Part shown: in pieces, positions 1,646 to 31,875 of the stretch | How positions within the stretch are numbered: the stretch's first letter is position 1 | Layout of the letters: each line of letters starts with the position of its first letter | Assembly (NCBI GenBank): GCA_963828495.1 | Contig: CAWHFJ010000022.1 | Span: 22,964-86,963 of the forward strand | Reading direction: 5' to 3' | Length of the DNA stretch: 64,000 nucleotides | DNA from: Candidatus Omnitrophota bacterium | GTDB lineage: Bacteria; Omnitrophota; Gorgyraeia; Zapsychrales; Fredricksoniimonadaceae | Translations under genes and position numbers: made by a program | Notes under the pieces: model-generated | The model's database searches: none | What the model saw: the letters and a program-made list of their open reading frames with translations, nothing else | Told to the model about the DNA's origin: nothing

Positions 1646-1870
1646 ATGAAAGCTAAAGATTTTGATAAAAAGTTTGATGAGGGGGGAGATATTACACCGT
1701 TAGTCAATAAAAATCATGCCCGTCGTCTTAATCAGGACCAGAGACGAGTCAATGTTGATTTTCCACGATGGATGATCGACTCCTTAGACAAACGAGCCAA
1801 ACGTTTGGGAGTGACAAGGCAATCTGTTATTAAACTTTTTATAGCTGATCATTTAAAACAAGCTAATTAA
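1646..1870 (+). CDS. ribbon-helix-helix antitoxin, BrnA/CopG-like
   Basis: 74 aa. The text KDFDKKFDEGGDITP...RRVNVDFPRWMIDSLDKRAKRLGVTRQSVIKLFIADHL matches the BrnA/CopG antitoxin pattern as I remember it. GGAGG RBS at about 1630. Confidence 0.55.
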   Translation: MKAKDFDKKFDEGGDITPLVNKNHARRLNQDQRRVNVDFPRWMIDSLDKRAKRLGVTRQSVIKLFIADHLKQAN

Positions 1871-1963: not shown

Positions 1964-2040
1964 CCAGTTATAAAAAATTTCTTACATTATCATTTGCATT
2001 TGTATTTAATTTGTTATGATACTTAAAAGGACGTGTCAGC

Positions 2041-2619
2041 ATGACTCGTGATGAAATATATGATCATCTTGCCAAGGTTTATTTAGGCAAGCGTGAGAGT
2101 TTTGTAGAAAAAAAACGTAAATTAAAACCGGTCAATCATTCATGGCTGGTGATTAACATAGTGATTACGGCGGTCATCGCTATTTGTACGGTGTACGGAT
2201 TTACGGCATTTTTAACCCATAGGGCAGATTTAAAGTCTCAGGTTTTTTACGCGCTGAATAATAACCCCATTCGTCTGACCTACGATCTGAATGACCCGTA
2301 TCCGGCGACAAAAACTTTTTCAATGACGCTGCCCAACAAGGATGTTTCCAAATACAAGGCCTTGAATGTCAGTTTGCGCGGGTTGGACGGCGCTTATCCG
2401 GGAATTGTGAAAGTCATCGTTGCTAACCAAAAAAATGAGAAGGCCAGTTATTATATTCAAAACGTGAATATGCAGTGGCGGACGGTCAACATTCCTTTTG
2501 AAAAATTAAATTTAACGGATTGGACTACAGTGACGGATGTGTCCTTTGTTCTGGAAGCATGGAACGTGGATTTTCGTAAAGGCGCACTGTTGATTGATGG
2601 GGTTAGCTTTTCAAACTGA
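2041..2619 (+). CDS. membrane-anchored protein with C-terminal beta-sandwich domain (CBM11/CIA30-like?)
   Basis: 192 aa. Single TM segment (WLVINIVITAVIAICTVYGFTAFL), then a beta-rich domain ending ...WTTVTDVSFVLEAWNVDFRKGALLIDGVSFSN, reminiscent of jelly-roll carbohydrate-binding modules. The product call is tentative. Confidence 0.45.
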   Translation: MTRDEIYDHLAKVYLGKRESFVEKKRKLKPVNHSWLVINIVITAVIAICTVYGFTAFLTHRADLKSQVFYALNNNPIRLTYDLNDPYPATKTFSMTLPNKDVSKYKALNVSLRGLDGAYPGIVKVIVANQKNEKASYYIQNVNMQWRTVNIPFEKLNLTDWTTVTDVSFVLEAWNVDFRKGALLIDGVSFSN

Positions 2620-2687: not shown

Positions 2688-3791
2688 ATGAAAATTATTT
2701 CGATTGCCAATCAAAAAGGCGGATGCGGGAAAACGACGACGGCCATCAATTTGGCCTCGACCTTGGCGTTTAACGGTCAAAAGACCTTGTTGATCGATTT
2801 AGACCCTCAGGCGCACGCCACCTTGGGGCTTAATGTGGAAGACCAAAACAGCCTTTATAATTGCATTTCCAAGTTGACCCCGCATAAATTAAAAATCAAA
2901 GACATTATCAAAAAAGTGAGCAACTCCTTTGATATCGTGCCGTCCAATGTTTTAGTCGGTACCCTCGAACAGGAATTGGCGGATGAGATCGGCCGTGAAC
3001 TTAAACTGACGGAAATTCTCAGTGAGATCAAAGACCTCTACGATTATATTTTGATTGATTGTCCTCCGAGCCTCGGGTTTTTGACCGTGAATGCGATTCG
3101 TGCCAGCGACGAGATCATCATACCGGTTGAGACCAGCCGTTTTTCCATGCAGGGGGTGGACCACCTGATGGATATTGCTAATTTGATCCGTGAGAGGCTC
3201 AATCACTCGGTTGACACTAAAGTGTTGATCACCATGTTTGACTCGCGCCTGCGCCATTCTTTTACTATGCTGGGGCACATGAAAGAAAAGTTCTCCGGGA
3301 TGCTGTTTGATACGATTGTGCATATCAATGTCAAGCTCAAAGAAGCCGCGGTCATGGGGGAAGCGGTCATCAAGTATGATAAATATTGCCGCGGTTCCAA
3401 AGATTATTTGAGTCTAGCGCGCGAGATTTTGAGTCTCAACCGTCCTGTGGCATCAGCAGAACAGACAGCGCCAGAGTATGAACCTTCAGAACGTATGCAG
3501 GAGTTAATCCAAACAGAAACCGAAGGATTTTTAAAGACGACGGCCTTTATCTTAAAGGCCCCGCAGGCCCAATGTGTTTATGTGACCGGATCTTTTAATG
3601 ACTGGTCCCTGGATGAAAATTGTCGTTTGAACAACAAGGACGGTCTCTGGACGTTGGACCTTAATTTAAAGCCGGGCGTCTATAGATATCAGTTTATCGT
3701 CGACGGTAAATGGCAGGAAGACCCCGCCAATACGCACACGGAGCGCAATTCATTCGGAGACATTAATTCTGTCATTGAGGTCAAGGCCTGA
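2688..3791 (+). CDS. ParA/MinD-family ATPase fused to C-terminal AMPK-beta/CBM48-like glycogen-binding domain
   Basis: 367 aa. Deviant Walker A NQKGGCGKTTT, then LLIDLDPQ and ILIDCPPSLG, as in ParA/Soj. C-terminal residues about 283-366 read VYVTGSFNDWS...DGLWTLDLNLKPGVYRYQFIVDGKWQEDP, the AMPK1_CBM/CBM48 signature. Confidence 0.75.
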   Translation: MKIISIANQKGGCGKTTTAINLASTLAFNGQKTLLIDLDPQAHATLGLNVEDQNSLYNCISKLTPHKLKIKDIIKKVSNSFDIVPSNVLVGTLEQELADEIGRELKLTEILSEIKDLYDYILIDCPPSLGFLTVNAIRASDEIIIPVETSRFSMQGVDHLMDIANLIRERLNHSVDTKVLITMFDSRLRHSFTMLGHMKEKFSGMLFDTIVHINVKLKEAAVMGEAVIKYDKYCRGSKDYLSLAREILSLNRPVASAEQTAPEYEPSERMQELIQTETEGFLKTTAFILKAPQAQCVYVTGSFNDWSLDENCRLNNKDGLWTLDLNLKPGVYRYQFIVDGKWQEDPANTHTERNSFGDINSVIEVKA

Positions 3792-4118: not shown

Positions 4119-4192
4119 GTGTCATTGCGAGCGAAGCGAAGCAATCCCGTTTTTTGAGATTGCTTCAGTCGCGTTGCTCCTTCGCAATGACA
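4119..4192. repeat. inverted pair of GTCATTGCGAGCGAAGCGAAGCAATC repeats
   Basis: The left arm (4119-4146) and the right arm GATTGCTTCAGTCGCGTTGCTCCTTCGCAATGAC (4158-4192) form a long imperfect palindrome in the spacer. Confidence 0.6.
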
Positions 4193-6294: not shown

Positions 6295-8400
6295 ATGGCA
6301 CAAGGACGTGTGGAAATTCCTTTTGGAGCTTCCAATCTTATTATTGAATCAGGTAAAATCGCCAAGCAAGCCAACGGCGCTGTGACTTTGTCCGTCGGCG
6401 GCACGGTTGTTTTGGTCACGGCCTGTATGGCGAAAAAACCTAGAGAAGGGATTGATTTTTTCCCTTTGACGGTTGAATATCAGGAAAAAACTTATTCCGC
6501 AGGCAGGATCCCCGGCGGTTTCTTTAAGCGCGAAGGCCGTTCGACCGAACGCGAAATTTTAGTGTCCCGTTTGATCGACCGTTCCGTGCGTCCTTTATTC
6601 CCGCAAGGATGCTTGAATGAAGTGCAGATCGTGGCCTCTGTCTTAAGCCATGACGGTGAAAATGATCCGGATATTTTGGCGATGATCGGTGCTTCGGCGC
6701 TTTGATGGTTTCCGACATCCCTTATGACGGCCCTATCGGTGCCACCCGGGTATGTTTGATCGATGGAGAATTGGTGGCCAATCCTACTTTTGCCCAGCGC
6801 AAAGAAAAAAATACCATGGATTTGGTGGTGGCAGGTTGGGGTGATGGTATTGTCATGATCGAAGGCGAAGCCAATGAAGTCCCTGAAGCCAAGGTCTTGG
6901 AAGGATTAAAATTCGCCTTAAAAGATTTGCAGGCTTCCAAAGAAGCCCAGATGAAATTAGCCAAAGAAGATCGGCAAACCTAAAACACAAATGCCGATAA
7001 AAGAAGTCCATCCGGCTTTTGCGGCCCATGTGCGTCAATTAGCCTTAGGGCCTTTGAATGATGCTTATACAAAAATTGCGGACAAACAAAAGCGTGAAGA
7101 TGCGGTCAATGCGGTATTTGAAAAATTGACAGGTGATTTAAGCGCCTATGCTCAATTTAATACCGAAGAGCATGAAATTACGGCATCTGATGTGATTGCC
7201 CAATTTGAAGCCCTGCAATATGAAGTCATCCGCAACAATGTTTTTGATAAAGGTATCCGTGCCGACGGCCGTGGTTTAAAAGATATCCGTCAGCTTGATT
7301 GTGAAGTCAGTGTTCTGCCGCGTACCCATGGTTCAGCCTTGTTTACCCGCGGGCAAACCCAAAGTTTGGGGATCATCACACTTGGCACCAAGGACGATGA
7401 GCAATTAGTCGAAGGCCTGGAAGAAACAAGTTATAAGACCTTTATGCTGCATTATAATTTTCCTTCTTTTAGCGTGGGTGAAACCAAGCCCATGCGTGGT
7501 CCTGGCCGTCGTGAAATCGGCCATGGCGCGTTGGCTGCCAAGGCGATCAGAGCAGTGCTTCCTTCAAAAGATGATTTTCCTTACACCATCCGGGTGGTTT
7601 CTGAAATTTTGGAATCCAACGGTTCCTCATCCATGGCTTCTGTGTGTGCCGGTTGTTTGGCGCTGATGGATGCCGGTGTTCCTATCAAAGCGCCGGTGGC
7701 AGGTATTTCCATCGGACTTATTTCCGATGAGAAACGCACGGTTTTGATCACCGACATCATGGGCTTGGAAGATCATTTCGGGGACATGGATTTCAAAGTG
7801 GCGGGTTCCCGCGAAGGTGTTAATGCCATTCAGCTGGACCTTAAGATCAAACAATTATCCATCGAGCTTTTGGAAAAGGCCGTGGCCCAGGCCAGGGAAG
7901 CCCGCATGATCATTTTAGACAAAATGCATTCTGTGATGCCTGCGGTGCGTGCCGAGATGTCACCTTATGCGCCGCGCATCGTGACTTTGCAGATCCCGCA
8001 GGACAAGATCGGTGAGATCATCGGTCCCGGCGGCAAGAATATCCGCAGGATGATCGAAGAAAGCGGTGTTACTTCCATCGATATCGAAGAAGACGGCAAG
8101 GTGATCGTGGCGTCTCCTGATAAAGATGCTTTGGAAAAAGCCGTGGGCATGATAAAAGCTTTGACCGAAGAGCCGGAGGTTGGTAAAATTTATGAAGCAA
8201 CCGTCAAGAGGATCATGAATTTCGGCGCTTTTGTTGAATTTATTCCCGGACGCGAAGGCTTGGTGCATGTCTCCGAGCTTGCTAATAAATTCGTCAAAGA
8301 TGTTAATGAAGTCATTAAGGTCGGCGATAAATTTAAAGTCAAGCTCATGGAAAAAGACGAGATGGGCCGTTTTAACTTGAGCAAAAAACAAGCCGAATAA
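6295..8400 (+). pseudogene. pnp: polynucleotide phosphorylase, frame-disrupted in this sequence (2 shifts)
   Basis: The PNPase text runs across three ORFs: 6295-6705, 6702-6983 and 6991-8400 (RNase PH, KH and S1 domains, ...IYEATVKRIMNFGAFVEF). Single-nucleotide corrections restore the conserved text ...[18 protein letters not shown] (about 6697-6703) and ...KLAKEIGKPKTQMPIKEV (about 6961-6972). Confidence 0.9.
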
Positions 8401-8424: not shown

Positions 8425-10672
8425 ATGAAGCTTGAACATCTCAATGAGATCAAGGGCATTGTGATTCTGGCCTTAAGCCTCATTCTGTTGGCGAGTCTGG
8501 TTTCTTTTACCCCTGATCGATCTTTCTTGGTTTACTTCTAAACCGAATCTCCATGCCCAAAATTGGATCGGGATTGCCGGCGCTTATGCGGCCGGCATTC
8601 TTTTTTTCCTAGTCGGCTTAAGCGCTTATTTCTTGGTGGGCATCGGCGTATTTTTCAGCTGGAATAAATTTACCTCCCGTGATCTGCCTTTCAATTTTTT
8701 TAAATTCTTAAGCATCCTGATCTTATTTACCGTCGCGGCCGGCTTGTTTAGTTTTTTTGCCGGGGACAACGGGGGCTCGCGTTTTACCAGCGGGGGCATC
8801 ATCGGTGTTGTTTTTAGCGGTTTTTTGGTCGGATATTTTCAGCCTTTGGGGGCTTTGATCATTTTGTTTACCTTGGGGGCTTTGGCCTTGATTGTGACCG
8901 GTGAATTTTTGGTTTCGCCTTTTTTTATATGGCTGGGCAGAGGCATTATGCAGGCTTTCCAAAGGATTTTTAAAGGGGTGCCTATACCAACAGCTTTGCA
9001 AGCGTCATTTCGACGAGTGAAGAGTATGCAGAAGCACGTAAGAATCTAAGGCGCCGAAGAGATCTTCGAATGACAAAGCCTGTAAGAATGAGAAATTTAG
9101 AAGTACGGTGCTGCCTAAAGCCCCGGAAGTAAAACAAGCCTGCACCTGCAGCTGTGAAGCCTAATATCCATATTGTAGCTGCTCCTAAAACTGAAAATGT
9201 GACGCCTGAGCCGCAAAGCTCCTAAAACAGTAGGGGAGTATCATTTGCCCAGTGTGGATTTGCTTAAAGACCCGCCGATAGTTTCAGATAATAAGATCCA
9301 GGAAAGGCTCATGAGCGGGGCTAAGATCCTGGAAGAAACCTTGAGCGATTTTGGGGTCAATGTCAAGGTGGTGGATATTGAGCGCGGGCCTGTGATCACC
9401 CGTTATGAATTGCAGCCTGCGCCCGGAGTCAAGATCCAGAGCATTTCCAGTTTAACAGATGATTTGGCCCTGGCTTTAAGCGCTTCGGCCGTGCGTATTT
9501 TGGCACCTATCCCCGGTAAAAACAGGGTGGGTATTGAAGTGCCTAACGGATCTTCAGCCGCGGTATTTTTAAAAGATGTCCTGACCCAAAAACATTTGCG
9601 ACCGTCGATTCAAAATTGGATTTGGCCATCGGTAAAGACACTTCCGGTAAAGCCATTGTGACGGATCTGGCGGACATGCCGCATTTATTGGTGGCGGGAA
9701 CAACAGGCTCAGGTAAAACAGTTTGTTTAAACAGTTTGATCATGTCTATTCTTTTTAATGCTTCACCGTCAGAAGTCAAATTCATCATGATCGACCCTAA
9801 GATGGTGGAGCTTGTTCCTTATAATGATTTGCCGCATCTGTTTTGCCCTGTCATCACTGATGCCAAGAAAGCGGCTCCCGCGCTTAATTGGATCGTCATG
9901 GAGATGGAATCCCGTTATAAATTATTTAATAAAGAAGCGGTGCGTAATATTAAAGGCTATCATGCCAAAGGGCTTTTGATGCCTTATATTGTGGTCGTGG
10001 TTGATGAGTTGGCAGATCTGATGCAGGTTTCCGCCAAAACAGTCGAAGGGGCCATTGCCCGTTTGGCGCAATTGGCACGTGCGGCAGGCATCCATTTGAT
10101 CTTGGCCACCCAGCGTCCGTCGGTGGATGTTATTACCGGGGTCATCAAGGCCAATTTTTCTTCCCGGATTTCTTTTAAAGTCGCCTCCAAGGTGGATTCA
10201 CGCACCGTGCTGGATACCAATGGTGCGGAGACACTCTTGGCAAGGGTGATTTTCTTTTTATGAAAACAGGGGACCCCAAACCATCCGCGGGCAATGCTGT
10301 TATGTGTCTGATGAAGAGATCAATCCGGGTCATTGATTTTATCAAAAAACAGGGCCAACCGGAGTATAATGAAAGCGTGCTTAAAGCCCAGCCGTCCAGC
10401 AGGCATGGGATCCAATGATGAAAAAGATGAAATGTATGATGAGGCCGTGCGGGTGGTGATTGAAACCAACCAGGCTTCGGTGACGATTTTACAGCGCCGC
10501 TTGCGTTTGGGGTATTCCCGGGCCGCGCGCTTGATTGATATGATGGAGCAACACGGGCTGGTGGGCCCTTACGCGGGCAGCAAAGGCAAGGGACATTTTG
10601 GTGGACCGTGAAAAATGGCTTTTAGAGAATATGGGAGAAGTAAAAACGAATGCCGCCGACGGACAGCAATAG
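8425..10672 (+). pseudogene. ftsK: DNA translocase FtsK/SpoIIIE, frame-disrupted (many shifts)
   Basis: N-terminal TM region (8425-9049), linker, motor domain with Walker A GTTGSGKT (9616-10263), and gamma domain [45 protein letters not shown] (10333-10611). The C-terminus ...[14 protein letters not shown] continues in another frame to the TAG stop at 10670-10672. Confidence 0.85.
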
Positions 10673-22259: not shown

Positions 22260-22694
22260 ATGAAACTTGAAATCGCCGACATCCAAAAAATCATTCCGCA
22301 CCGTTTTCCGTTTTTGATGATCGACCGCATCCTGGAATGCCAGCCCAATAAAAAATTGGTGGCTATCAAAAATGTGTCCGTTAATGAGCATTATTTCTCG
22401 GGGCATTTTCCCGGTGAGAAGGTGATGCCCGGGGTTTTGATCATTGAAGCCATGGCCCAGGCCGGTTGTATTTATTTTTATTACAGTAAAAATCTGCAAG
22501 GGAAAAGCCTGATTTATTATCTGGCCAAGACTGAGGCGAGTTTTCATCATCCCGTCATGCCTGGCGATCAGTTGACCATCGAGGTCTCATCGGTCAAATT
22601 ATTACCTAAAGCCGGTTTCATCAACTGCAGGGCCCTTGTCGGTGAAAAATTAGTAGCTGAGGCGAAAATAGGTTTTGGCATTAAAGAAGTATAG
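22260..22694 (+). CDS. fabZ: 3-hydroxyacyl-ACP dehydratase FabZ
   Basis: 144 aa. IQKIIPHRFPFLMIDRI......A.KNVS.NE.YF.GHFPG..VMPGVLIIEAMAQ. Confidence 0.9.
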   Translation: MKLEIADIQKIIPHRFPFLMIDRILECQPNKKLVAIKNVSVNEHYFSGHFPGEKVMPGVLIIEAMAQAGCIYFYYSKNLQGKSLIYYLAKTEASFHHPVMPGDQLTIEVSSVKLLPKAGFINCRALVGEKLVAEAKIGFGIKEV

Positions 22695-22776
22695 TTTTTC
22701 TACAGGAAAGCGCTTCCTCAACACAACCCCCCAGCCCTTGTTTTTCTTATATTTATATGGCATATTTATAGTAAGT

Positions 22777-25700
22777 ATGAGAAAAACCCCATATATCCAT
22801 ATAGCTATTTTGATAGCTTTTCTGGTTAATACGTTTGGGCCGTTACCTATGGCCCAAGCCCAACTGGCCTCACAGGCAAGCGGGGATTTTCGTTTGCCGG
22901 CACCCGGGGTCATGGTTCATTTAAGCCCTAAGTTTAATCCGCCAATCCTTAAAGGTATTAAAGTCCATCCGGACAATCCATTCCGTTTTGATTTTATTTT
23001 AGATCGGGGTGATGCATACAAAGGACCTCAACAAGAACAACTAAAAACCGAAGCCACCAAACTCATCAAATATTTCCTAGCCAGCCTAACTATCCCGGAA
23101 AAAGACTTATGGGTCAATCTAAGCCCTTATGAAAAAGACCGCATTATTCCACAAAGCTTTGGTTTAACCCAGATGGGCAGAGATTTGCTGGCAGAAGATT
23201 ATATGCTCAAGCAGATAACGGCCTCATTGATTTATCCGGAAGACGAGATAGGCAAGAAGTTCTGGCAGCGGGTGTACGCAGAAGCCCAGCAGAAGTTCGG
23301 CACAACCAATATTCCGGTCAATACGTTTAACAAGGTATGGATAGTACCAGAAAAAGCAGTGGTTTATGAAAATGCCAAGGCAGGGACGGCGTATGTAGTG
23401 GAAAGTAAATTAAAGGTGATGTTGGAAGAGGATTATTTATCCATGAGTAAACATGCTGATGTTGGGCAGGTCTCCAACATCAATCGTCTGGGCTCCCAAA
23501 TCATCCGCGAGATTGTCATACCCGAATTAACCAAAGAGGTCAACGAAGACAAAAATTTCACTCAACTGCGACAAGTCTACAACAGCCTTATTCTGGCCAC
23601 ATGGTACAAGAAGAAAGTCAAGGATAGCCTCCTAGCCCAGGTTTATGAGAATAAGAAAAAAGTCGTTGGGGTGGAATATCAATCTCAAACCAACGACGTC
23701 GAAGCTATCTATCAGCGCTATTTACAGGCATTTAGGAAGGGTGTTTATAACTATATTAAAGAAGAACAGGATCCGATCATCAATCAAGCTGTTCCGAGAA
23801 AATATTTTTCCGGGGGAGTGCGATTATCCGATTTAGTCATAAATGCCGACAAAGCCATGCAATATACTCGTAACATACCTTCCAACCCTGAGAATGCCGT
23901 GGAAGTAACAACCGACTTGGCCATGTTAACCGGGCAGGAAGGGGGAGGCTCTTTTTTTGACACAAGCCATCGCTATTATTTGGCATTTAAAGATTTAATC
24001 GATCATATCCCGACTGAAGAAATCAGTAGTCCCCAGAAAGCGATGGAATATTATGATCAACATAAAAACGAATTCCCTTATTTGAGAGACCGCCAGAAGC
24101 CGATGGGAGAACGGGCATCCATCGGGAGGAGTTATTTTGTAGATGTCATCGGCCATCGGGAAGATTTTGATCCGGCTAAACAGTCATCATTTCGAAGTTT
24201 TGCGGCTACTTTAAATTATTACGAACAGTTTCAAGGGATCATTAATGCCATTGCCTCTGTAGAGATCAGCACTCCGCAGAAGGCGATGGAGTATTATGAC
24301 CAACACAAAGCAGATTTTCCTCAAATAGAGGATCGCAATAAGCCAATAGCAGAACAAAAGCCTATTGGTCGGTCGTATTTCATAGGCGTCATCAGCCACC
24401 GCGCAGATTTTGATCGATTAAGACACCAAGATTTTGCGCGTTTTGCAACCAGTCTGCGGTATTACGAAGAGTTTCAAAGCCAAATTGATGCCATCCCGGC
24501 CGCAGACATCAGCAGCCCTGAAAAAACGATGGCCTATTATAATGAGCACAAAGGAGAATTCCCTCAGTTGAATGATAGGATAAAACCGATCTCTGAACAG
24601 CGACCTATTAGTAGGAATTATTTTATAACAGTTCTTACCCATCGGAAAGATTTTGACCAATCTAAACATCAGGCATTTGCGCGTTTTATAATGGGGTTAC
24701 GGTATTACGAAGAATTTCAAAGCAAAATTGATGCCATCCCAGCCGCAGACATCAGTAGTCCTGAGCAGGCCATGGACTATTATGATCGCCACAAGAGAGA
24801 ATTTCCTCAGTTAGAGGATGTCCAGAAGCCGGCTGAAGAACAAACTCCTGTTAGTAGGGGTAATTTTATAGCTATCATCAGCTGGCGGGCAGATTTTGAC
24901 GACACCAAAGAGCAGGCATTTCAGCGTTTTGCCGGTAGCCTGAGGTATTACGAACAGTTTCAAACGATCATTGATGCGATATCCGAAGAAGAAATCAGCA
25001 ATCCTGAGAATGCGATGGAGTATTATGATCAACACAAAAATGCATTTCCTCAACTGGATGATCAGGACAAACCGGTTGCAGAACAAACGCCTATTGGCAG
25101 AGCGTATTTTATAAACGTCATTAGCCATAGAGCCAATTTTGATCAGTCTAGACATCAAACATTTGCACGTTTTGCGGCCAGTTTGCGGTATTACGAAGAG
25201 TTTCAAGAGAAGATTGATGCGATTGCGGCTATAGACATCAGCAGTCCTGAAAAAGCGATGGAGTATTATGATCAGTACAAAGAAGATTTTCCTCAGTTGA
25301 AAGATCTAAACAAGCCGATGGCTCAACAAACACCCATCGGAAGGGCTTATTTTATCAGTGTCATCAGCCACCGCGATGATTTTGACCTGGCCAGAGAACA
25401 GAAATTCGATCGATTTGCCACTAGCTTAAGCTACTACGAAGAGTTTCAAGGCAGGATTGATGCGATTGCGGCTATAGACATCAGCAGTCCTGAAAAAGCG
25501 ATGGAGTATTATGATCAATACAAAGGAGATTTTCCCCAGTTAGACGATCGCCATAAGCCAATGGCCCAACAGACCCCGATCGGTAGGGGTTACTTTATAG
25601 ATGTCATCAGTCATCGTGGCGATTTTGATCAATTAAGGCATCAAGCATTTGTACGTTTTGCGGGTAGTTTGCGGTATTATGAGGAGTTTCAGGAAAGGAT

Positions 25701-28700
25701 CGATGCGATCCCGGCCGCCCAGATCGGCACTCCTGAGGAGGCGATGGCGTATTATAGTCAACACAAGGGAGAATATCCTCGGCTAAACGACCGTAAGAAG
25801 CCTGTTTCACAACGAACCCCCATTAGCTGGGGGTATTTTATAGATATCATCAGCCACCGCAAAGATTTTGACAAAGAAAGTAAATGGAGATTCGAACGTT
25901 TTAAAATGGGTTTGCACTACTATGAAGAATTTAAAGAAAAGATTGATGCCATCCCATCCGCAGAAATCGACAGTCCTAAAAAAGCGATGGAGTATTATGA
26001 TCAACATAAGCAGGAATTCCCTCAGTTAGAGGACCGAAGGAAACCCATTGCAGAACAAACGCCCATCGGCAGGGGTTATTTTGTCAGCATCATCAGCCTT
26101 CGAAAAGATTTAGATAAATTTAAAGAGTCGTTATTTGGACACTTTGCAACCAGTCTAACCTATTACGAAGAGTTTCAAGAGGGCATTGATGCAATCCCCT
26201 TTGGAGATATCAGCACGCCTGAGAAAGCGATGGAGTATTACGATCAGCACAAAGGAGAATTTCCTCAAATTGAAGATCAAGATAAGCCACTGGCAGAACA
26301 AACGCCTATTAGCAGATCGTATTTTATAAACATCATCAACCACAGGACAGACTTTGATCAATCAAAGCATCAAACATTCGTTTTTTTCGCCACTAGTTTG
26401 CGGTATTACGAAGAGTTTCAAGGGGTGATTGATGCCATACCTTCTGAAGATATCAGTACTCCTGAAAAAGTGATGGCGTATTACGATCAACATAAGGGGG
26501 AATTGCCTCAAATAGAAGATCAAAATAAGCCGATGGCAGAACAAGCGCCCATTAGCAGGGCGTATTTCATAAGCGTCATCAGCCATAGAGCAGATTTTGA
26601 TAAATCCAAACATCAGGCATTTGCGCGTTTTGCTACCAGTTTACGGTATTATGAAGAATTTCAAACGGTCATTGATGCGATTGCGGCCAGAGACATCAGC
26701 AGTCCTGAAAAAGCAATGGAGTATTATGATATGCATAAAATGGCATTTCCCATGCTGGAAGATAGGGAAAAACCGGTTGCCCAACAGACTCCGATCAGTA
26801 GGGGCTACTTTATAGATGTCATCGGTCATCGCAGCGATTTTGATAAACAGCGGCAACAGAGTTTTACTCGCTTTGCGAACAGTTTGAATTATTATGAAGA
26901 AAATCAAAATATGACCGATGCTATCCCGACAGAATATATTAGTACTCCGGAAAAAGCCATGGAATATTACGATCAGCATAAGCAGGAATTCCCCCTGCTA
27001 GAGGATCGGGAAAAACCGATAGCAGAACAAACTCCGATAAGCCGGGCTTATTATGTGCAGATTATCAGTCATCGGAAAGATTTTGATAAAGTCAAGCAGA
27101 GGGCATTTACTAATTTTGCGGTCAGTCTGCATTATTATGAATTACATCAAGAGATCATTGATCGCTATGTCAGAGAATTGTTTGTCAATGGACTCCCGCA
27201 GGAGAATGAAGACATGCTGAAGCTGTATTTACAATTAGCCCCCTATTTGTCACGTATAGATAAACCTCAGTTTACTATTTCCATCATTTATTTTAGAGAA
27301 ATTTTGCACGCGGCCCGTCTTATTTCATTGCAAAGATATCAGAGAAGCCAAAAATTTATTGCAGGAGTTCATTACGCTTTAAAGATGCAGGGTAGGATCG
27401 TAGGTCTTTTCAAAGAAGCCTATGGGAAATTGGTTAATCTAAGACAGATGGATTTGGAAGAAGTAAAAGCGCGTGTCTATAAGCTGTTCATAACAGATAT
27501 TAATAGAGGAGGATTAAGAGAGAAGTTCGTGAGGATCAATCGTCCTAAGGGGGCATTAGAGGATAGGCCGCTTTCTCTCTCGATTTTGAAAAGCTATTTG
27601 CCTCCCCTAAAGCTTGTTTATGGAGATCAACTTCTTGAGGCTTTACAGACAGATCAAGTGCCAGAATTTCTGGATGCATTAAAATCAAGGCTGCAAAACA
27701 TAAGGCTGGCTGGCTCTATAGAAGAAGGGGAACAGGAAGATCCGAATGAAGCGATGATTACCGCTCAAGAAAATTTGGAGGGCGTTTCCGGGAAAACCAT
27801 GCCCTTTAAAGATTTTATAAAAAATCAATTGCTGTTAGATTATTGGAAAGTTACGAGACAAGCATTTTTAGCCCACTTTGATAAACAACAGGCAGAACTG
27901 ATCTGGGGCGAATTAAAAGATAAAGGTTATATTAGAAAAGGCACGTTGGAATTTTTTGATGGTGAATTTTCTGAATTTTCAAAGGGTCCATCTAATGAGT
28001 TCATGACGCCGGAGGAGGCGGAGAAAGCCTTAATAGAGGCTATACAAAAAAGTGGCATTGACATTCCCCCTGCTGATACGCCTATTGACTCATTGGCAAA
28101 GTTGATAGAAAGTAGAATTTTATATAAAGCTATGCCCATACGGCCTGATGAAGTTAGTGAGCGAATTAATCGATTAGAACATGGGGGGAAACCATTAAAT
28201 TCTTGGGAGATTAAAGATTTAAACAGGATTCTAATAGAGGCCAACTACTCACAAGCTCCTAAAAGGCTCAATTATGATAGCGTCATTCAGGACGCATTCC
28301 GTGCACTTGAAAATTATTCACAGTTGGATTTGCCTGGAATATCTGATACTCAGAAAAAACAAATTTATGACATTATTCAACAGGCTCATTGGTTTAATAG
28401 GATTGATTTCAAATTAGAGGGCTCATTAAATCTTCATTTTGAGGATGAATCCCAATTTGATGAGTTGACAGTCGTATTAGATGAGGTCATAGCCAATGCG
28501 CTCCAAGCACAAAAAGAAGGGAAGATAAGGATTACTGTTGAGGGGAATAAAATTTTGATACAGAATGATGGTGAAATACCTTGGGATGTTATGCAAAAGA
28601 AATATAATGAACTTATTCGTGAACACGATCTGTATGTGATTCGTCAAGCAGATGGATCCATTGAAGATCTGGGCTCCAAAGATTTTTTCGCCCAATCGTT

Positions 28701-31700
28701 AATTAAATCAAATAAAATTACAGAAGCCACTCAAAAAGACATTGAGGATTTATTTGCCAGTAAAGAGGGGCGGGAGAGATTGTTCTTTGATCATCGAGGG
28801 GTTTCATTTGGACCAAATAAAGGAACAGCCATACAGCGCAATGGTGGCGTGGGTTTGTATATGGCTAAAGCCTATAGTGGATTATTAGGAGCTCAGCTTA
28901 GGATAGCGGATGATGGGAAAGAAACTAGGGGAGTCTCATTAGAGATTGATTTTCTTAATGCATCGCCATTTATTTCTGCACCTTCTGAAGGCAATCCGGC
29001 GATGCTGGCAGAAGTGGCGGAGGAAGGCGTTTCATACGAGATCCCCATTATTGATTTGCTTGGTAATGGTATCGTGCCAGATGCGTATCAAAGGGATTAC
29101 GATGGTACTTTGATGGATATTTTGTTATTTTTTATGGATATAGGACTGAAGAAAAAATCGTTAGCTGTCCCCCCAGTGTCGAATATTTTATTGATAGGCG
29201 GATCAGTGAAGGATGTGGCTATTTTATATAAGCGGTTTCCTAAGGCCATGATCACAGTAGTCAATTTAGACGGACCTTATTTGGCGCAGATCCAGCGGCA
29301 ATATGAAAATAAGCCGGGACATCTATTGCGGTTGTTTCAGGCAGATGCAACGAAGCTTTCTGCTTATCAAACACAAGGCGGGGAATCCTATTTTTCCGAT
29401 GGTATTTTTGATTTGATCGCAGCTCCGGGGGTGGATGAAAGCTGCTTTCCTAAGAATGGCCCGGCGATCTTGCAAAGGATCGCTCAGGAGGAAGTTCGTT
29501 TGGTTAAGAAGGGGGGATTGATCTTACACGATCTTCATGAAGATACTCAGGGATCAATGGGGTATCATAGGGAGGCTATCCAACAAGGAGTCTTGGAGTT
29601 CGTTGGTGATAGCAATGCACATAATATCCCCAGCATTTTTTATAGAACAGACCTTGCGATGCTGGCGCACGTTGGTTATATTGAGGAAGTTTTTCGAAGA
29701 GTCAAGGAGGGCCATAAAGTTACTATTAGCGCAGTCATACCTGATCCCCAAGAGGCGGGAGAATATGAGGTGTTTCTCCATTCCAATCGAGATGGCAGTT
29801 GGAAAACTGACCCCACTCCTTTACAAAAGAGAGAAGAGGATGGGAAAGTCTTTTTTGATGACACGGTCACAGCAGAAAGGAGTTTTCAATACACTTTTGT
29901 ATTTAAAAAGGCCGATGGTACCCAGGTATGGGCAGATAGACCCTACGGAGATGGGCAGGTTTTTGTTGACCGCGATTTCAAAGGCACACTCGTTTTTGCT
30001 GGAATGGAATTTGGACCTTTGGCTAAGAAGGGTGGACAGGCGGATGTTATGTACGAACTGCCACGCAATCTAGTCAGAGGTGGTAATGAAGTGAGGGTTG
30101 TTATTCCCTATTATAAAGAGTTAGCAGAGAAGTATGCCGGTCAAGGATTTAAGATCGAGGATGTTAATGGGATTACAATAAACATTGATTTTAAGCGTCG
30201 AGCTAATGAGATTTTAAAAGTCAAGAAAGTCGTTATTGATGGGATAACGGTGTATATGTTGGATGCGCAAAGCAACGATCTTTTTAGAAAACCGTATCCT
30301 GGTCCCTATGCAGAGTTTTATGAATCGATCCTTTTATCAAGAGGGACCTCAGAACTGTTATATCAATTGAGTCAGAATTTTGGAGACAAAAAACCAGATG
30401 CTGTCGTATTTAGTGATCATCATGCCGCTTTAACGCCTCTTTATATGCATGAAGAGCATCCAGATTTTTATGCTAAAACAGGGAGAGTGTTTACCATCCA
30501 TAATATCGGCTATCAAGGCGAGTATGAAGACACCGGCTTGATCGAAGAGTTTGGCCTGAAACGAACGCCTCAATTAGAGCAGTTAGTCATTCAGTCAGGG
30601 AAATTAAATTTTATGTCTGTACCGCCGGGTCTGGCCGAATTGGAAGGGTATAAAGGCTGGTATGCTGGGACCGTCAGCCCGACCTATGCCAACGAGATCA
30701 GGGGGACTGCATTTCAACTAGATAAGAAATTTCAGAGAATGCAAGAGCATTTTGGGGGTATTTTAAACGGTATTGATTATGAAGTTAATAATCCTGAAAC
30801 TGATCCGTTATTAGCCGAGCTTGCAGTTAGATATCCTGGTTTTGGTTTAAGCAATTATAGTTTAGACAGGGATGGGATTGAAGGCGTGATGGCGGCCAGA
30901 CAAAAATTCAAACATTTTATCCGATTTGTTTTTAGCCATAGCGGAATCCCTGAATGGGAAAGTAAACAAATTACAAAAACCGGGAACTTGGAAGAAAATT
31001 CAAATCATATGTTAGTGGGCATGATTGGCCGCGTGACACAACAAAAGCAGATCGATATTGTGGCTGATATGATCGAAGAAATGGCTAATGGTCAGCGGCC
31101 TAAGATTGGGATCGATTTTTTGCTTGCGGGATCTGGAGATGCGTATACGCAGGATAGTGTGAGACGATTAGAAGGGGTAGCCAAAAGATCTGGAATAGAG
31201 TTTAATACGGTTGTTCTTAACGGATTTATCAGTGAAATGACGGCTAGGTTGATGTATGCCGGATGTGATGTTATTTTGATGCCTTCTGACTTTGAACCCT
31301 CCGGCATAGTACAACAGATTGCCAAACGTTATGGCAGCTTACCGCTGGTTCGCAAGACGGGGGGCTTGGCAGATACGGTTTTTGAAACAGGACAGAATAA
31401 TAATGGTTTTATCTTTACGGGAACATTTCGTAGGATGAATACAGCAGAGGACCCGGCAGCGAGAAGACAGAATACGGATGAATTATATGAAAAAGTTAGA
31501 GAGGCCGATGAAGTTTATCATCAAGATCAAAATCTTTGGCAGACAAAAATGATCAACGGCATGAGGGATAATAGCAGCTGGGATCTGCGCATGCGGGATT
31601 ATTTAAATGTATTTGCTTGGCTGGGTGATCAATTAAATGATAGGGGTATGATCACGCATACAGGTGGTATCGATCTGACCCCTGCCAATATGAATTTGCA

Positions 31701-31875
31701 GACTCAAAATAACGGCGGCTCAATCCAATTCCATCTTGACTCCGCACAACTGCAGCAGCTACAAAACGCTTCCGGCTTTGTGCCGGTTATTATCAATATC
31801 CAGCCGATGACGAATCTTAGGGTGTTTTTGGGCTTGACGGATAATCCAGTTGTTGACGCCGTCGCATCGGGCTGA
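22777..31875 (+). CDS. giant (3,032-aa) multidomain protein carrying a complete GT5 glycogen/starch synthase
   Basis: Single uninterrupted ORF. Domain order:
- Signal-like start MRKTPYIHIAILIAFLVNTFGPLPMAQA/Q.
- Conserved N-domain (about 22860-23900).
- 13 x 81-aa repeats (23974-27132).
- GHKL-like module (about 28400-28960: EVIANALQA, IQNDGEI, GGVGLYMAKAYSGLLGAQL).
- Rossmann module (about 29180-29540: NILLIGGS...FDLIAAPG).
- CBM-like domain (about 29718-29975).
- GT5 domain (about 29985-31620: KKGGQADV, FTIHNIGYQG, TVSPTYANEI, GILNGID, FEPSGIVQQIA..YGSLPLVRKTGGLADTV).
The ORF-track start at 22675 (TTG, overlapping fabZ) is less likely. Confidence 0.85.
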   Translation: MRKTPYIHIAILIAFLVNTFGPLPMAQAQLASQASGDFRLPAPGVMVHLSPKFNPPILKGIKVHPDNPFRFDFILDRGDAYKGPQQEQLKTEATKLIKYFLASLTIPEKDLWVNLSPYEKDRIIPQSFGLTQMGRDLLAEDYMLKQITASLIYPEDEIGKKFWQRVYAEAQQKFGTTNIPVNTFNKVWIVPEKAVVYENAKAGTAYVVESKLKVMLEEDYLSMSKHADVGQVSNINRLGSQIIREIVIPELTKEVNEDKNFTQLRQVYNSLILATWYKKKVKDSLLAQVYENKKKVVGVEYQSQTNDVEAIYQRYLQAFRKGVYNYIKEEQDPIINQAVPRKYFSGGVRLSDLVINADKAMQYTRNIPSNPENAVEVTTDLAMLTGQEGGGSFFDTSHRYYLAFKDLIDHIPTEEISSPQKAMEYYDQHKNEFPYLRDRQKPMGERASIGRSYFVDVIGHREDFDPAKQSSFRSFAATLNYYEQFQGIINAIASVEISTPQKAMEYYDQHKADFPQIEDRNKPIAEQKPIGRSYFIGVISHRADFDRLRHQDFARFATSLRYYEEFQSQIDAIPAADISSPEKTMAYYNEHKGEFPQLNDRIKPISEQRPISRNYFITVLTHRKDFDQSKHQAFARFIMGLRYYEEFQSKIDAIPAADISSPEQAMDYYDRHKREFPQLEDVQKPAEEQTPVSRGNFIAIISWRADFDDTKEQAFQRFAGSLRYYEQFQTIIDAISEEEISNPENAMEYYDQHKNAFPQLDDQDKPVAEQTPIGRAYFINVISHRANFDQSRHQTFARFAASLRYYEEFQEKIDAIAAIDISSPEKAMEYYDQYKEDFPQLKDLNKPMAQQTPIGRAYFISVISHRDDFDLAREQKFDRFATSLSYYEEFQGRIDAIAAIDISSPEKAMEYYDQYKGDFPQLDDRHKPMAQQTPIGRGYFIDVISHRGDFDQLRHQAFVRFAGSLRYYEEFQERIDAIPAAQIGTPEEAMAYYSQHKGEYPRLNDRKKPVSQRTPISWGYFIDIISHRKDFDKESKWRFERFKMGLHYYEEFKEKIDAIPSAEIDSPKKAMEYYDQHKQEFPQLEDRRKPIAEQTPIGRGYFVSIISLRKDLDKFKESLFGHFATSLTYYEEFQEGIDAIPFGDISTPEKAMEYYDQHKGEFPQIEDQDKPLAEQTPISRSYFINIINHRTDFDQSKHQTFVFFATSLRYYEEFQGVIDAIPSEDISTPEKVMAYYDQHKGELPQIEDQNKPMAEQAPISRAYFISVISHRADFDKSKHQAFARFATSLRYYEEFQTVIDAIAARDISSPEKAMEYYDMHKMAFPMLEDREKPVAQQTPISRGYFIDVIGHRSDFDKQRQQSFTRFANSLNYYEENQNMTDAIPTEYISTPEKAMEYYDQHKQEFPLLEDREKPIAEQTPISRAYYVQIISHRKDFDKVKQRAFTNFAVSLHYYELHQEIIDRYVRELFVNGLPQENEDMLKLYLQLAPYLSRIDKPQFTISIIYFREILHAARLISLQRYQRSQKFIAGVHYALKMQGRIVGLFKEAYGKLVNLRQMDLEEVKARVYKLFITDINRGGLREKFVRINRPKGALEDRPLSLSILKSYLPPLKLVYGDQLLEALQTDQVPEFLDALKSRLQNIRLAGSIEEGEQEDPNEAMITAQENLEGVSGKTMPFKDFIKNQLLLDYWKVTRQAFLAHFDKQQAELIWGELKDKGYIRKGTLEFFDGEFSEFSKGPSNEFMTPEEAEKALIEAIQKSGIDIPPADTPIDSLAKLIESRILYKAMPIRPDEVSERINRLEHGGKPLNSWEIKDLNRILIEANYSQAPKRLNYDSVIQDAFRALENYSQLDLPGISDTQKKQIYDIIQQAHWFNRIDFKLEGSLNLHFEDESQFDELTVVLDEVIANALQAQKEGKIRITVEGNKILIQNDGEIPWDVMQKKYNELIREHDLYVIRQADGSIEDLGSKDFFAQSLIKSNKITEATQKDIEDLFASKEGRERLFFDHRGVSFGPNKGTAIQRNGGVGLYMAKAYSGLLGAQLRIADDGKETRGVSLEIDFLNASPFISAPSEGNPAMLAEVAEEGVSYEIPIIDLLGNGIVPDAYQRDYDGTLMDILLFFMDIGLKKKSLAVPPVSNILLIGGSVKDVAILYKRFPKAMITVVNLDGPYLAQIQRQYENKPGHLLRLFQADATKLSAYQTQGGESYFSDGIFDLIAAPGVDESCFPKNGPAILQRIAQEEVRLVKKGGLILHDLHEDTQGSMGYHREAIQQGVLEFVGDSNAHNIPSIFYRTDLAMLAHVGYIEEVFRRVKEGHKVTISAVIPDPQEAGEYEVFLHSNRDGSWKTDPTPLQKREEDGKVFFDDTVTAERSFQYTFVFKKADGTQVWADRPYGDGQVFVDRDFKGTLVFAGMEFGPLAKKGGQADVMYELPRNLVRGGNEVRVVIPYYKELAEKYAGQGFKIEDVNGITINIDFKRRANEILKVKKVVIDGITVYMLDAQSNDLFRKPYPGPYAEFYESILLSRGTSELLYQLSQNFGDKKPDAVVFSDHHAALTPLYMHEEHPDFYAKTGRVFTIHNIGYQGEYEDTGLIEEFGLKRTPQLEQLVIQSGKLNFMSVPPGLAELEGYKGWYAGTVSPTYANEIRGTAFQLDKKFQRMQEHFGGILNGIDYEVNNPETDPLLAELAVRYPGFGLSNYSLDRDGIEGVMAARQKFKHFIRFVFSHSGIPEWESKQITKTGNLEENSNHMLVGMIGRVTQQKQIDIVADMIEEMANGQRPKIGIDFLLAGSGDAYTQDSVRRLEGVAKRSGIEFNTVVLNGFISEMTARLMYAGCDVILMPSDFEPSGIVQQIAKRYGSLPLVRKTGGLADTVFETGQNNNGFIFTGTFRRMNTAEDPAARRQNTDELYEKVREADEVYHQDQNLWQTKMINGMRDNSSWDLRMRDYLNVFAWLGDQLNDRGMITHTGGIDLTPANMNLQTQNNGGSIQFHLDSAQLQQLQNASGFVPVIINIQPMTNLRVFLGLTDNPVVDAVASG
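23974..27132 (+). repeat. in-frame tandem array, 13 units of exactly 243 nt (81 aa)
   Basis: The unit phase marker TAT-TAY (YY of YYEEFQ) recurs at 23974, 24217, 24460 ... 26890, 27133, always 243 nt apart. Consensus: YYEEFQxxIDAIPAxDISSPEKAMEYYDQHKxEFPQLEDRxKPxAEQTPIGRxYFIxVISHRxDFDxxKHQAFARFAxSLR. Confidence 0.9.

Follow-up and report, generated by a model that had tools for sequence, protein, structure and literature searches.

The question raised by the locus described here is what a bacterial ParA-type ATPase could do with a sugar-binding domain attached to its C-terminus. Spatial organisation in bacterial cells is mainly the work of ParA/MinD ATPases, whose known cargos are chromosomes, plasmids, the divisome, carboxysomes and other microcompartments, flagella, chemoreceptor arrays and conjugation machines. 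In a stretch of 64,000 nucleotides from a Candidatus Omnitrophota bacterium (assembly GCA_963828495.1, contig CAWHFJ010000022.1, positions 22,964 to 86,963 of the forward strand), hereafter called the window, one gene encodes such an ATPase fused to a carbohydrate-binding module (CBM) of the AMPK-beta/CBM48 type. A first-pass annotation of these letters proposed that the fused module, with an alpha-glucan as ligand, takes the place of an adaptor protein and serves to position glycogen granules. The analysis reported here partly supports this interpretation. Most likely, judging from sequence and from analogy with related systems, the fusion serves, under ATP control, to tether the glycogen stores of the cell or to distribute them; that it would do so as a bivalent glycogen tether or positioner switched by ATP, in the manner of ParA/MinD systems and together with a partner protein, is a proposal drawn from sequence, structural models and analogy to which we give an even chance.

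The open reading frame (ORF), whose features are collected in the table below, is preceded by an AGGAG Shine-Dalgarno sequence 9 nt 5' of its ATG, and the motifs previously read in it are all present: NQKGGCGKTT at residues 8-17, DLDPQ at 37-41, IDCPP at 123-127, VYVTGSFNDW at 297-306 and YRYQFIVDGKW at 332-342. Pfam, matches to solved structures and AlphaFold2 (AF2) agree on the two domains and on their layout. The protein has no signal peptide, beta-strand 1 and the Walker A loop lying right at the N-terminus. In this N-terminal part, Pfam recognises AAA_31 (residues 1-175, 188 bits) and CbiA (62 bits), while the NCBIfam minD models score 59-81 bits against cut-offs above 200. The solved structures nearest to this part in sequence are the ParA 8RAY (E 1e-48), Helicobacter pylori Soj (HpSoj, 6e-37) and Thermus thermophilus Soj (TtSoj, 9e-36). 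A monomer model built with AF2 from a 61-sequence family alignment, with a mean predicted local distance difference test (pLDDT) score of 93.4, comprises the ATPase (1-250), a beta-sandwich (283-365) and a segment of low confidence between them. Compared by Foldseek, the ATPase domain superimposes on the Soj/ParA structures 9A6N, 8RAY, 6IUB and 2BEK with TM-scores of 0.92-0.93 and root-mean-square deviations of 1.4-2.0 A, McdA (0.84-0.86) and BcsQ and MinD (about 0.8) being weaker fold matches. By sequence and model comparison, the ATPase is thus a member of the Soj/ParA-like branch of the ParA/MinD superfamily.

The C-terminal domain was assigned by other means. Foldseek with the full model returned ATPase matches only and no structural match for the CBM, whose identity is therefore based on sequence profiles and residue mapping. 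Pfam AMPK1_CBM (PF16561) matches residues 293-366 with 61 bits (gathering cut-off 26.8), rising to 65 bits (E 6e-18) when residues 283-366 are searched in isolation, and CBM_48 (PF02922) reaches 23.5-26.3 bits (cut-off 22.4). Among solved structures, the best sequence matches are the glycogen-binding modules of rat and human AMPK beta1/beta2 (1Z0N, 1Z0M, 2F15; E 2e-9), followed by the CBM48s of pullulanase, SEX4, LSF1, SIP2 and GlgB. In these alignments W306, W342, Q335, F356 and N360 of the fusion correspond to W100, W133, K126, L146 and N150 of AMPK beta1. Because both the profiles and the contact residues match, the domain is, at the level of sequence, a member of CBM48/AMPK1_CBM.

The fusion is real and widespread. 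Two independent read-set assemblies contain the identical protein, flanked by the same two neighbours. Both domains are present over the full length in more than 120 clusters at 70-97% identity, those with a named source being Omnitrophota, and HMMER, run exhaustively against 1.8 billion cluster representatives, added dozens of end-to-end representatives at 33-48% identity. In addition, a pattern scan of one genome per species gave at least 600 matches, at least 591 of which encode a relative. The best 80 of these relatives all span residues 1-365 and come from Omnitrophota, Planctomycetota (Phycisphaerae, Tepidisphaerales, Pirellulales, Sedimentisphaerales), Myxococcota, Desulfobacterota, Gammaproteobacteria (Thiogranum, Thiohalobacter), Rokubacteria, Zixibacteria, Eisenbacteria, Margulisbacteria, Auribacter and a spirochaete. 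The family thus ranges over more than 10 bacterial phyla and, at 50% identity, makes up more than 100 clusters, so that the fusion is no one-off, as the first reading had it. An artificial joining of two genes, through misassembly or frameshift, was considered and rejected in view of the two assemblies and of hundreds of full-length orthologues in other genomes. Among the named fusion matches there is no cultured carrier and no specific database name, all being metagenome-assembled genomes, and the annotations seen carry just two labels for it, 'AAA family ATPase' and 'chromosome partitioning protein'. Two observations on related proteins may be recorded here. One sequence (P0151) joins a canonical Soj-like N-terminus (KGGVGKT, DPQAN) to a C-terminal half and CBM of the family type, and may have arisen by recombination or as a separate fusion. 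Four proteins of 1337-1812 residues (P0122, P0140, P0157, P0260), unrelated to ParA, contain 7-18 tandem AMPK-beta-like CBM stretches.

Conservation was scored over 82 species-level fusion proteins taken from fetched loci and diverging to about 35% identity. The ATPase residues K10, C13, K15, D37, D39 and D124 are present in all 82. The Walker A cysteine (KGGCGKT), likewise found in every sequence, is specific to the family, as is H43 of the DPQxH motif (81/82), canonical Soj (8RAY, HpSoj) reading KGGVGKT and DPQGN instead. In the C-terminal domain W306, W342 and G357 are invariant, S361 is kept in 78 proteins, position 360 (equivalent to N150) is N or D in 80, and position 335 (equivalent to K126) is K or R in 71. 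This pattern is the one expected from purifying selection on sugar binding. The linker between the two domains varies from 24 to 69 residues across the family.

Independent support for an alpha-glucan ligand comes from the genes around the fusion. In 15-16 related loci, the second gene upstream of the fusion, read in the same direction, encodes a GH57 protein (226 bits); this has the catalytic HxHQP motif at its very start and, since it lacks a signal peptide, is a cytoplasmic alpha-glucan enzyme. There is no GH57 gene in the window, whose sub-clade does not have it at that position. The window does encode a GlgA-like GT5/GT1 domain, formed by the last ~640 residues of a 3066-residue ORF (22675-31875, forward strand) and scoring 280 bits with TIGR02095, below the cut-off of 328; the first ~2400 residues of this ORF contain no Pfam domain above threshold. 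The organism can therefore probably make alpha-1,4-glucan, whereas a link between the fusion and this giant protein, already raised in the earlier reading, is speculation; no GT5 gene was found near the fusion in other loci. Two Myxococcota loci have a PGM/PMM (phosphoglucomutase) gene convergently downstream of the fusion and ppx divergently upstream.

A classical ParA would be expected to work with ParB. Neither the box II/III motifs of ParB in the 82 loci (+/-6 kb) or in the 64-kb window, nor a ParBc domain in the seven Pfam-annotated loci, could be detected, and membership of a ParABS system was rejected on this ground. What adjoins the fusion is a conserved gene of another sort. In most phyla, outside the window clade, an ORF that begins at most 400 nt downstream on the same strand starts with the peptide (K/R)xLG(R/K)GLx(D/E)(I/V)SH(L/I)FLS, whose LGRGL part resembles the N-terminal peptide by which ParB activates ParA. 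The corresponding regular expression has 25 matches just downstream of the fusion and 1 elsewhere (871 kb, six frames), and its carriers span more than 10 phyla. Beyond the peptide, 17 of 22 such partners are homologous, a representative containing a degenerate CbiA/MinD-like domain; this domain has ~300 residues, with a longer form of ~500 residues in Phycisphaerae. The partner gene stands at +1 in L036, L044, L061, L067, L079 and L085, is also present in L039, L048, L049, L056 and L072, and is often followed by the gene for a conserved protein of ~225 residues (c12) that has no Pfam match.

The window clade, defined as Omnitrophota with at least 51% identity to the window fusion, has a different arrangement. 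No LGRGL-type partner occurs in its 29 loci or in the 64-kb window, the latter searched by tblastn and by motif, and all 29 have a gene called c0 immediately upstream of the fusion on the same strand. The first 16 residues of c0, M-x-R/K-D/K-E/D-I-Y-D/E-H-L-A-x-V/I-Y-L-G/D, are by far the best-conserved part of the protein, and in the AF2 model they form a helix, after which comes a disordered stretch rich in Lys. The first-pass description of this gene as a membrane-anchored protein with a CBM-like beta-sandwich holds: AF2 predicts a transmembrane helix, and the jelly roll beyond it matches CBM11, CBM4 and CBM30 in Foldseek with E down to 4e-7. Because of the positive-inside rule, the peptide is expected to be cytoplasmic and the jelly roll outside. 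There are 437 homologues of c0, those named by source being all Omnitrophota, and deeper-branching Omnitrophota have at the same position a remote homologue, c7, whose peptide ahead of the transmembrane helix reads QLAD(I/V)YFS. Upstream genes of the c0/c7 type bear the conserved N-terminal peptide in 35 loci. The three peptides have in common the core hydrophobic-[S/A]-x-hydrophobic-[F/Y]-[L/F]-[S/G], of which the c0 version is the 7-residue L-A-K-V-Y-L-G, and which, under a pattern written post hoc, is ~90-fold denser in the N-terminal zones of the adjacent genes than in the rest of the loci. Across loci, c0-type and LGRGL-type partners are mutually exclusive.

It is an established rule that the partners of ParA/MinD ATPases engage the ATPase through an N-terminal peptide and the cargo through the remaining protein (PMC10241942). 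The assignment of partners proposed here fits this rule. On sequence grounds, the fusion thus appears to be an orphan ParA with a dedicated, adjacent candidate partner in each lineage. The idea that a fused cargo domain replaces the adaptor is wrong in this respect, because a conserved neighbouring gene with an N-terminal peptide accompanies the fusion in both types of lineage.

Taken together, these data suggest the following cycle. By analogy with Soj/ParA, ATP binding would produce a sandwich dimer, which would be bivalent for glycogen because it displays two CBMs on flexible tethers. Such a dimer would sit on nucleoid DNA through the basic face that is retained in the window protein (R187, R189, K216, K218, K232, R235), so that glycogen particles would be tethered to the nucleoid and spread over it rather than condensing at a pole. 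The partner encoded by the adjacent gene would dock on the dimer by its N-terminal peptide and trigger ATP hydrolysis, returning the ATPase to monovalent monomers of low avidity that would release the glycogen. Repetition of this cycle would position or partition glycogen much as cargo is handled by McdAB or ParABS. Since the window-clade partner c0 is membrane-anchored in sequence and model, the cycle would probably be coupled to the cytoplasmic membrane in the window organism. As to the benefit, Escherichia coli has, to our knowledge, no such ParA-CBM protein. In this bacterium, unpositioned glycogen condenses at the old pole, with the result that both inheritance and division are asymmetric (PMC12706056). 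A clear selective rationale for a glycogen-positioning fusion lies there. The wider claim, that glycogen is an actively positioned and partitioned cargo in more than 10 phyla, bound by ParA through a fused CBM48 and with a new class of partners cycling the ATPase, is more tentative and falls, in our estimate, somewhat short of an even chance.

Several points weigh against this tether model. Glycogen binding, DNA binding, dimerisation and stimulation by the partner are all deduced from sequence or from analogy. Alpha-glucan genes adjoin the fusion only in some lineages: there are none close to it in the window, in L088, in L089 or in the other loci sampled, the large neighbours sampled outside the GH57 sub-clade being TPR, ManC, HAD and unknown proteins. 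At the position of the sugar-contacting K126 of AMPK beta1, the window protein carries Q335, a replacement limited to its own sub-clade. The patterns for the partner peptides were written post hoc from the same loci, so that their enrichment is descriptive and not a test. The DNA face also calls for caution. R187, equivalent to R189 of Bacillus subtilis Soj (BsSoj), is kept in 78 of the 82 proteins, and K216 (HpSoj K230) and K218 are mostly basic; the window clade, however, has fixed F192, H212 and Y233, positions 192 and 233 corresponding to HpSoj K199 and K247 and positions 212/213 reading H/I, with K218, K232 and R235 close by; other lineages have mostly Arg or Lys at 192 and Arg or another polar residue at 212 and 233. 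In H. pylori Soj, the region formed by K199, the surroundings of K227 and K247 faces DNA. DNA binding by the window fusion is thus plausible but not secure, being less certain in this clade because F192, H212 and Y233 replace DNA-contacting positions. Besides, the window-clade partner is predicted to sit in the membrane and to have a domain in the periplasm, an arrangement that a simple nucleoid-glycogen model leaves unaccounted for. Finally, classical systems have the ATPase attached to the matrix and the partner to the cargo, so that with a CBM placed on the ATPase glycogen could be the matrix, or a regulator, and not the cargo.

This last point leads to the main alternative, which we regard as unlikely although it deserves attention: glycogen would be a matrix, the CBM giving the ATP-bound dimer avidity for its surface as the C-terminal membrane-targeting helix of MinD does for the membrane, or a regulatory input, the CBM informing an ATPase with another cargo of the glycogen state as in AMPK, and the partner, namely c0 in the window clade and the MinD-like pseudo-ATPase elsewhere, would hold the real cargo. 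Such a role would be in line with the terminal position of the CBM, which is that of the membrane-targeting sequence of MinD, with the partial loss of basic residues on the DNA side and the membrane anchor of the partner in the window clade, and with the partner's own large C-terminal region, the part that binds cargo in known systems (PMC10241942). Conversely, conservation of the Soj R189-equivalent and of several other basic residues points to DNA binding having been kept, the ATPase fold is nearest to nucleoid-binding Soj/ParA and not to MinD, and nothing points to another cargo. If the C-terminal domain were only an Ig-like/E-set module for protein-protein contacts, as the first-pass annotation had itself considered, it would bind no sugar. 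E-set domains do serve protein contacts, the AMPK CBM also docks on its kinase domain, and both the change from K126 to Q in the window protein and a weak NCBIfam similarity to a plug protein of the type IX secretion system go in the same direction. The stacking tryptophans W306 and W342, aligned with W100 and W133 of AMPK beta1, are nevertheless invariant in the 82 proteins, and G357, S361 and N/D360 are invariant or nearly so; the top matches are the sugar-binding AMPK beta modules, SEX4, LSF1, pullulanase and the CBM48s of branching enzymes; and GH57 lies close by in related loci. This reading is accordingly less likely, and we consider it very doubtful.

The nearest solved relatives of the ATPase, in sequence and in structure, being chromosomal ParA/Soj, and some sources naming the fusion a 'chromosome partitioning protein', it might also be an ordinary chromosome-partitioning Soj with an accessory domain, its ParB and parS being encoded elsewhere. 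Against this stand the lack of an adjacent ParB in the 82 loci and the window, the presence of a dedicated non-ParB partner, and the KGGCGKT/DPQxH signature shared across phyla, which differs from the KGGVGKT/DPQGN of Soj. Moreover, the fusion occurs in Myxococcota and Gammaproteobacteria, which have canonical ParABS systems. This possibility too is less likely and has, in our view, a very small chance. A cytoplasmic organiser of envelope polysaccharide synthesis or export, of the BcsQ or BY-kinase kind, would be a further solution: the ATPase would dock on the tail of c0, in concert with c3 (the product of the next gene downstream) and an Alginate_exp-type porin, and the CBM would hold nascent glucan. 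The operon indeed includes two membrane proteins, one of them with a CBM-like jelly roll in the periplasm, 21 loci have a porin gene on the upstream side, Pfam CBP_BcsQ matches with 39 bits, eps_fam/Wzc models match weakly and BcsQ is among the fold matches. These c0, c3 and porin neighbours are, however, confined to one Omnitrophota clade, whereas the fusion occurs with other neighbours in more than 10 phyla, and a strong terminator separates the porin gene from the operon. BcsQ is also more distant (TM-score about 0.8, 19-20% identity) than Soj (0.92, 33-38%), TIGR03371 and eps_fam score 69 and 52 bits against cut-offs of 158 and 108, there is no C-terminal Tyr cluster and there are no bcs or wz genes nearby, and the associated GH57 lacks a signal peptide. 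This envelope role is likewise less likely and appears improbable.

To describe the neighbourhood, ORFs were called in the 82 loci and the neighbours clustered. The syntenic block of the window clade consists, on the 5' side, of an Alginate_exp-type porin gene (the 21 loci mentioned above), GH57 (15-16 loci) and c0 (29/29), and, on the 3' side, of c3 (about 108 residues, at +1 in 18 loci) and c1 (about 140 residues, at +1 or +2 in 23 loci). The one-base overlap between fusion and c3, read at first as translational coupling to a DUF4870-like membrane protein, is real: c3 of the window has no Pfam match itself, and its orthologues match PF09685 MamF_MmsF, formerly DUF4870. With a strong terminator behind the porin gene and a promoter-like site in front of c0, the likely transcription unit is c0, fusion and c3. 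Whether c1, which matches Pfam GTP_EFTU_D2 with 26 bits, below the cut-off, is a member of the system is uncertain; its tail is very Lys-rich and histone-H1-like, and c1 is possibly a nucleic-acid or polyanion binder.

Features of the ParA-CBM locus (positions in the window; res, residues of the encoded protein)
Feature	Position	Strand	Evidence or remark
Strong terminator after preceding porin gene	1495-1526
Promoter-like site before c0 / ParA-CBM / c3	1993..2020	+	Consensus scan only
c0, candidate partner, 192 aa	2041..2619	+	-1 position, conserved N-terminus, AF2, Foldseek
c0 conserved N-terminal helix, res 3-15, RDEIYDHLAKVYLGKR	2041-2094	+	Lys-rich linker after it
c0 transmembrane helix, res 33-65	2137-2235	+	AF2
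c0 extracytoplasmic CBM-like beta-jelly-roll, res 77-191	2269-2613	+	AF2
ParA-CBM fusion gene	2688..3791	+	367 aa plus stop, ATG start; ORF listing
Soj/ParA-type ATPase domain, res 1-250	2688..3437	+	PDB sequence matches, Foldseek, column conservation
Walker A NQKGGCGKTT, res 8-17	2709-2738	+
ATPase residues			D37/D39, Walker A'; D124, Walker B; R187, equivalent of B. subtilis Soj R189
Linker, res 251-282	3438..3533	+	Low-confidence 251-267, short helix 268-279 (AF2, DSSP)
AMPK-beta/CBM48-type alpha-glucan-binding module (by sequence), res 283-367	3534..3788	+	Pfam, PDB alignment, conservation
W306	3603-3605	+
W342	3711-3713	+
c3, small membrane protein with three transmembrane helices, 107 aa	3791..4114	+	TGATG, start codon overlaps fusion stop
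c1, downstream protein, 141 aa	4203..4628	+	Variable Lys-rich N-terminal tail and EF-Tu-domain-2-like beta-barrel

Some further features of the loci were recorded in passing. Between the porin gene and c0, the window has a 74-residue CopG/RHH antitoxin-like gene (1646-1870, forward strand) where the sister sub-clade has GH57. A repeated element, GTCATTGCGAGC, occurs at 1901, 4121-4191 and 14652, with four copies within one mismatch where ~1 would be expected by chance; the copies at 4121 and 4181 are inverted and form a long hairpin between the 107-residue gene and the next gene. Further downstream, pnp (PNPase), a single 700-residue gene in relatives, is spread over three consecutive ORFs (6295-6705, 6702-6983, 6991-8400), and ftsK is apparently fragmented too (9616-10263), which suggests frameshift errors in the assembly or pseudogenes. 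In other loci of Omnitrophota and Myxococcota (L003, L004, L006, L087), polyphosphate and phosphate genes (pst/phoU, ppx, ppk) lie near the fusion, and a PHB_acc/phasin-like gene is found ~7 kb downstream in Myxococcota loci; storage-polymer genes may cluster near the fusion, or this may be synteny only.

The fusion family is apparently unstudied. No account of a ParA fused to CBM48/AMPK1_CBM, or of glycogen positioned by a ParA, was found in a literature search whose coverage was incomplete, and the 2023 and 2024 benchmark papers on ParA/MinD ATPases name no polysaccharide or storage-granule cargo (among them PMC10241942). If glycogen is indeed actively positioned and partitioned by the fusion, it would be the first cargo of the ParA/MinD family that is neither protein nor DNA, and the fusion the first ATP-switched glycogen tether in any organism. 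A glycogen-binding ParA would also be a testable answer to the question of how other bacteria avoid or exploit the polar condensation of glycogen. From an applied point of view, the fusion and its recognisable partner peptide offer a ready-made pair of ATPase and tag, the polysaccharide handle being built in, that could be put to use in synthetic positioning. Finally, the Omnitrophota being an uncultured phylum of ultra-small cells, the fusion is one of the few functional handles on their cell organisation.

It remains to situate the fusion among known systems. With Soj/ParA (B. subtilis Soj, T. thermophilus 1WCV/2BEK, H. pylori 6IUB, and 8RAY) it shares the fold (TM-score 0.92-0.93, 33-38% identity), the deviant Walker A with its signature lysine, the Walker A' and B aspartates and the Soj R189-equivalent. 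It differs from them by the lack of ParB/parS nearby, by the Walker A cysteine and the histidine after DPQ, by the linker and CBM48, by another partner peptide and, in the window clade, by F, H and Y at three positions of the DNA face. MinD, a member of the same superfamily, also has a C-terminal appendage whose effective affinity for a surface would double on ATP-dependent dimerisation and a partner peptide that triggers release; the appendage of the fusion is, however, a folded domain of 85 residues predicted to bind sugar and not an amphipathic helix, its core is nearer to Soj, and no min genes (MinC/MinE) occur in the annotated neighbourhoods.

On the side of the glycogen binders, the module of the fusion resembles AMPK beta and the CBM48s of SEX4, LSF1, PTST and the N-domain of GlgB in matching the profiles above threshold and in keeping the equivalents of W100, W133, N150 and L146; eukaryotic modules of this type bring a non-glycosidase protein to glycogen or starch, as is proposed here. 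Unlike them, it sits on a P-loop positioning ATPase and not on a kinase scaffold, a phosphatase or a coiled coil, and, compared with AMPK beta, it is bacterial and cytoplasmic, with K126 replaced by Q in the window protein and K or R in most relatives. Storage-granule tethers are also known, PhaM linking polyhydroxybutyrate granules to the nucleoid in Ralstonia and Stbd1 linking glycogen to membranes in mammals. Like the fusion in the role proposed here, these are bifunctional links between a storage polymer and a cellular scaffold for positioning or inheritance; they are passive, have no NTPase switch and are unrelated to the fusion in sequence.

By analogy, the system would work most like McdAB. 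McdA is likewise an orphan ParA-type ATPase devoted to a metabolic body, with an adjacent partner, McdB, that has an N-terminal interaction region, and in both cases nucleoid-based distribution and equal inheritance would be expected. McdA is structurally more distant than Soj (TM-score about 0.85, 24% identity), the partners have no relationship to McdB and no carboxysome or McdB-like genes occur in the annotated fusion loci. Where McdA serves a protein shell, the fusion would carry the domain for cargo recognition on the ATPase itself, its predicted cargo being a polysaccharide.

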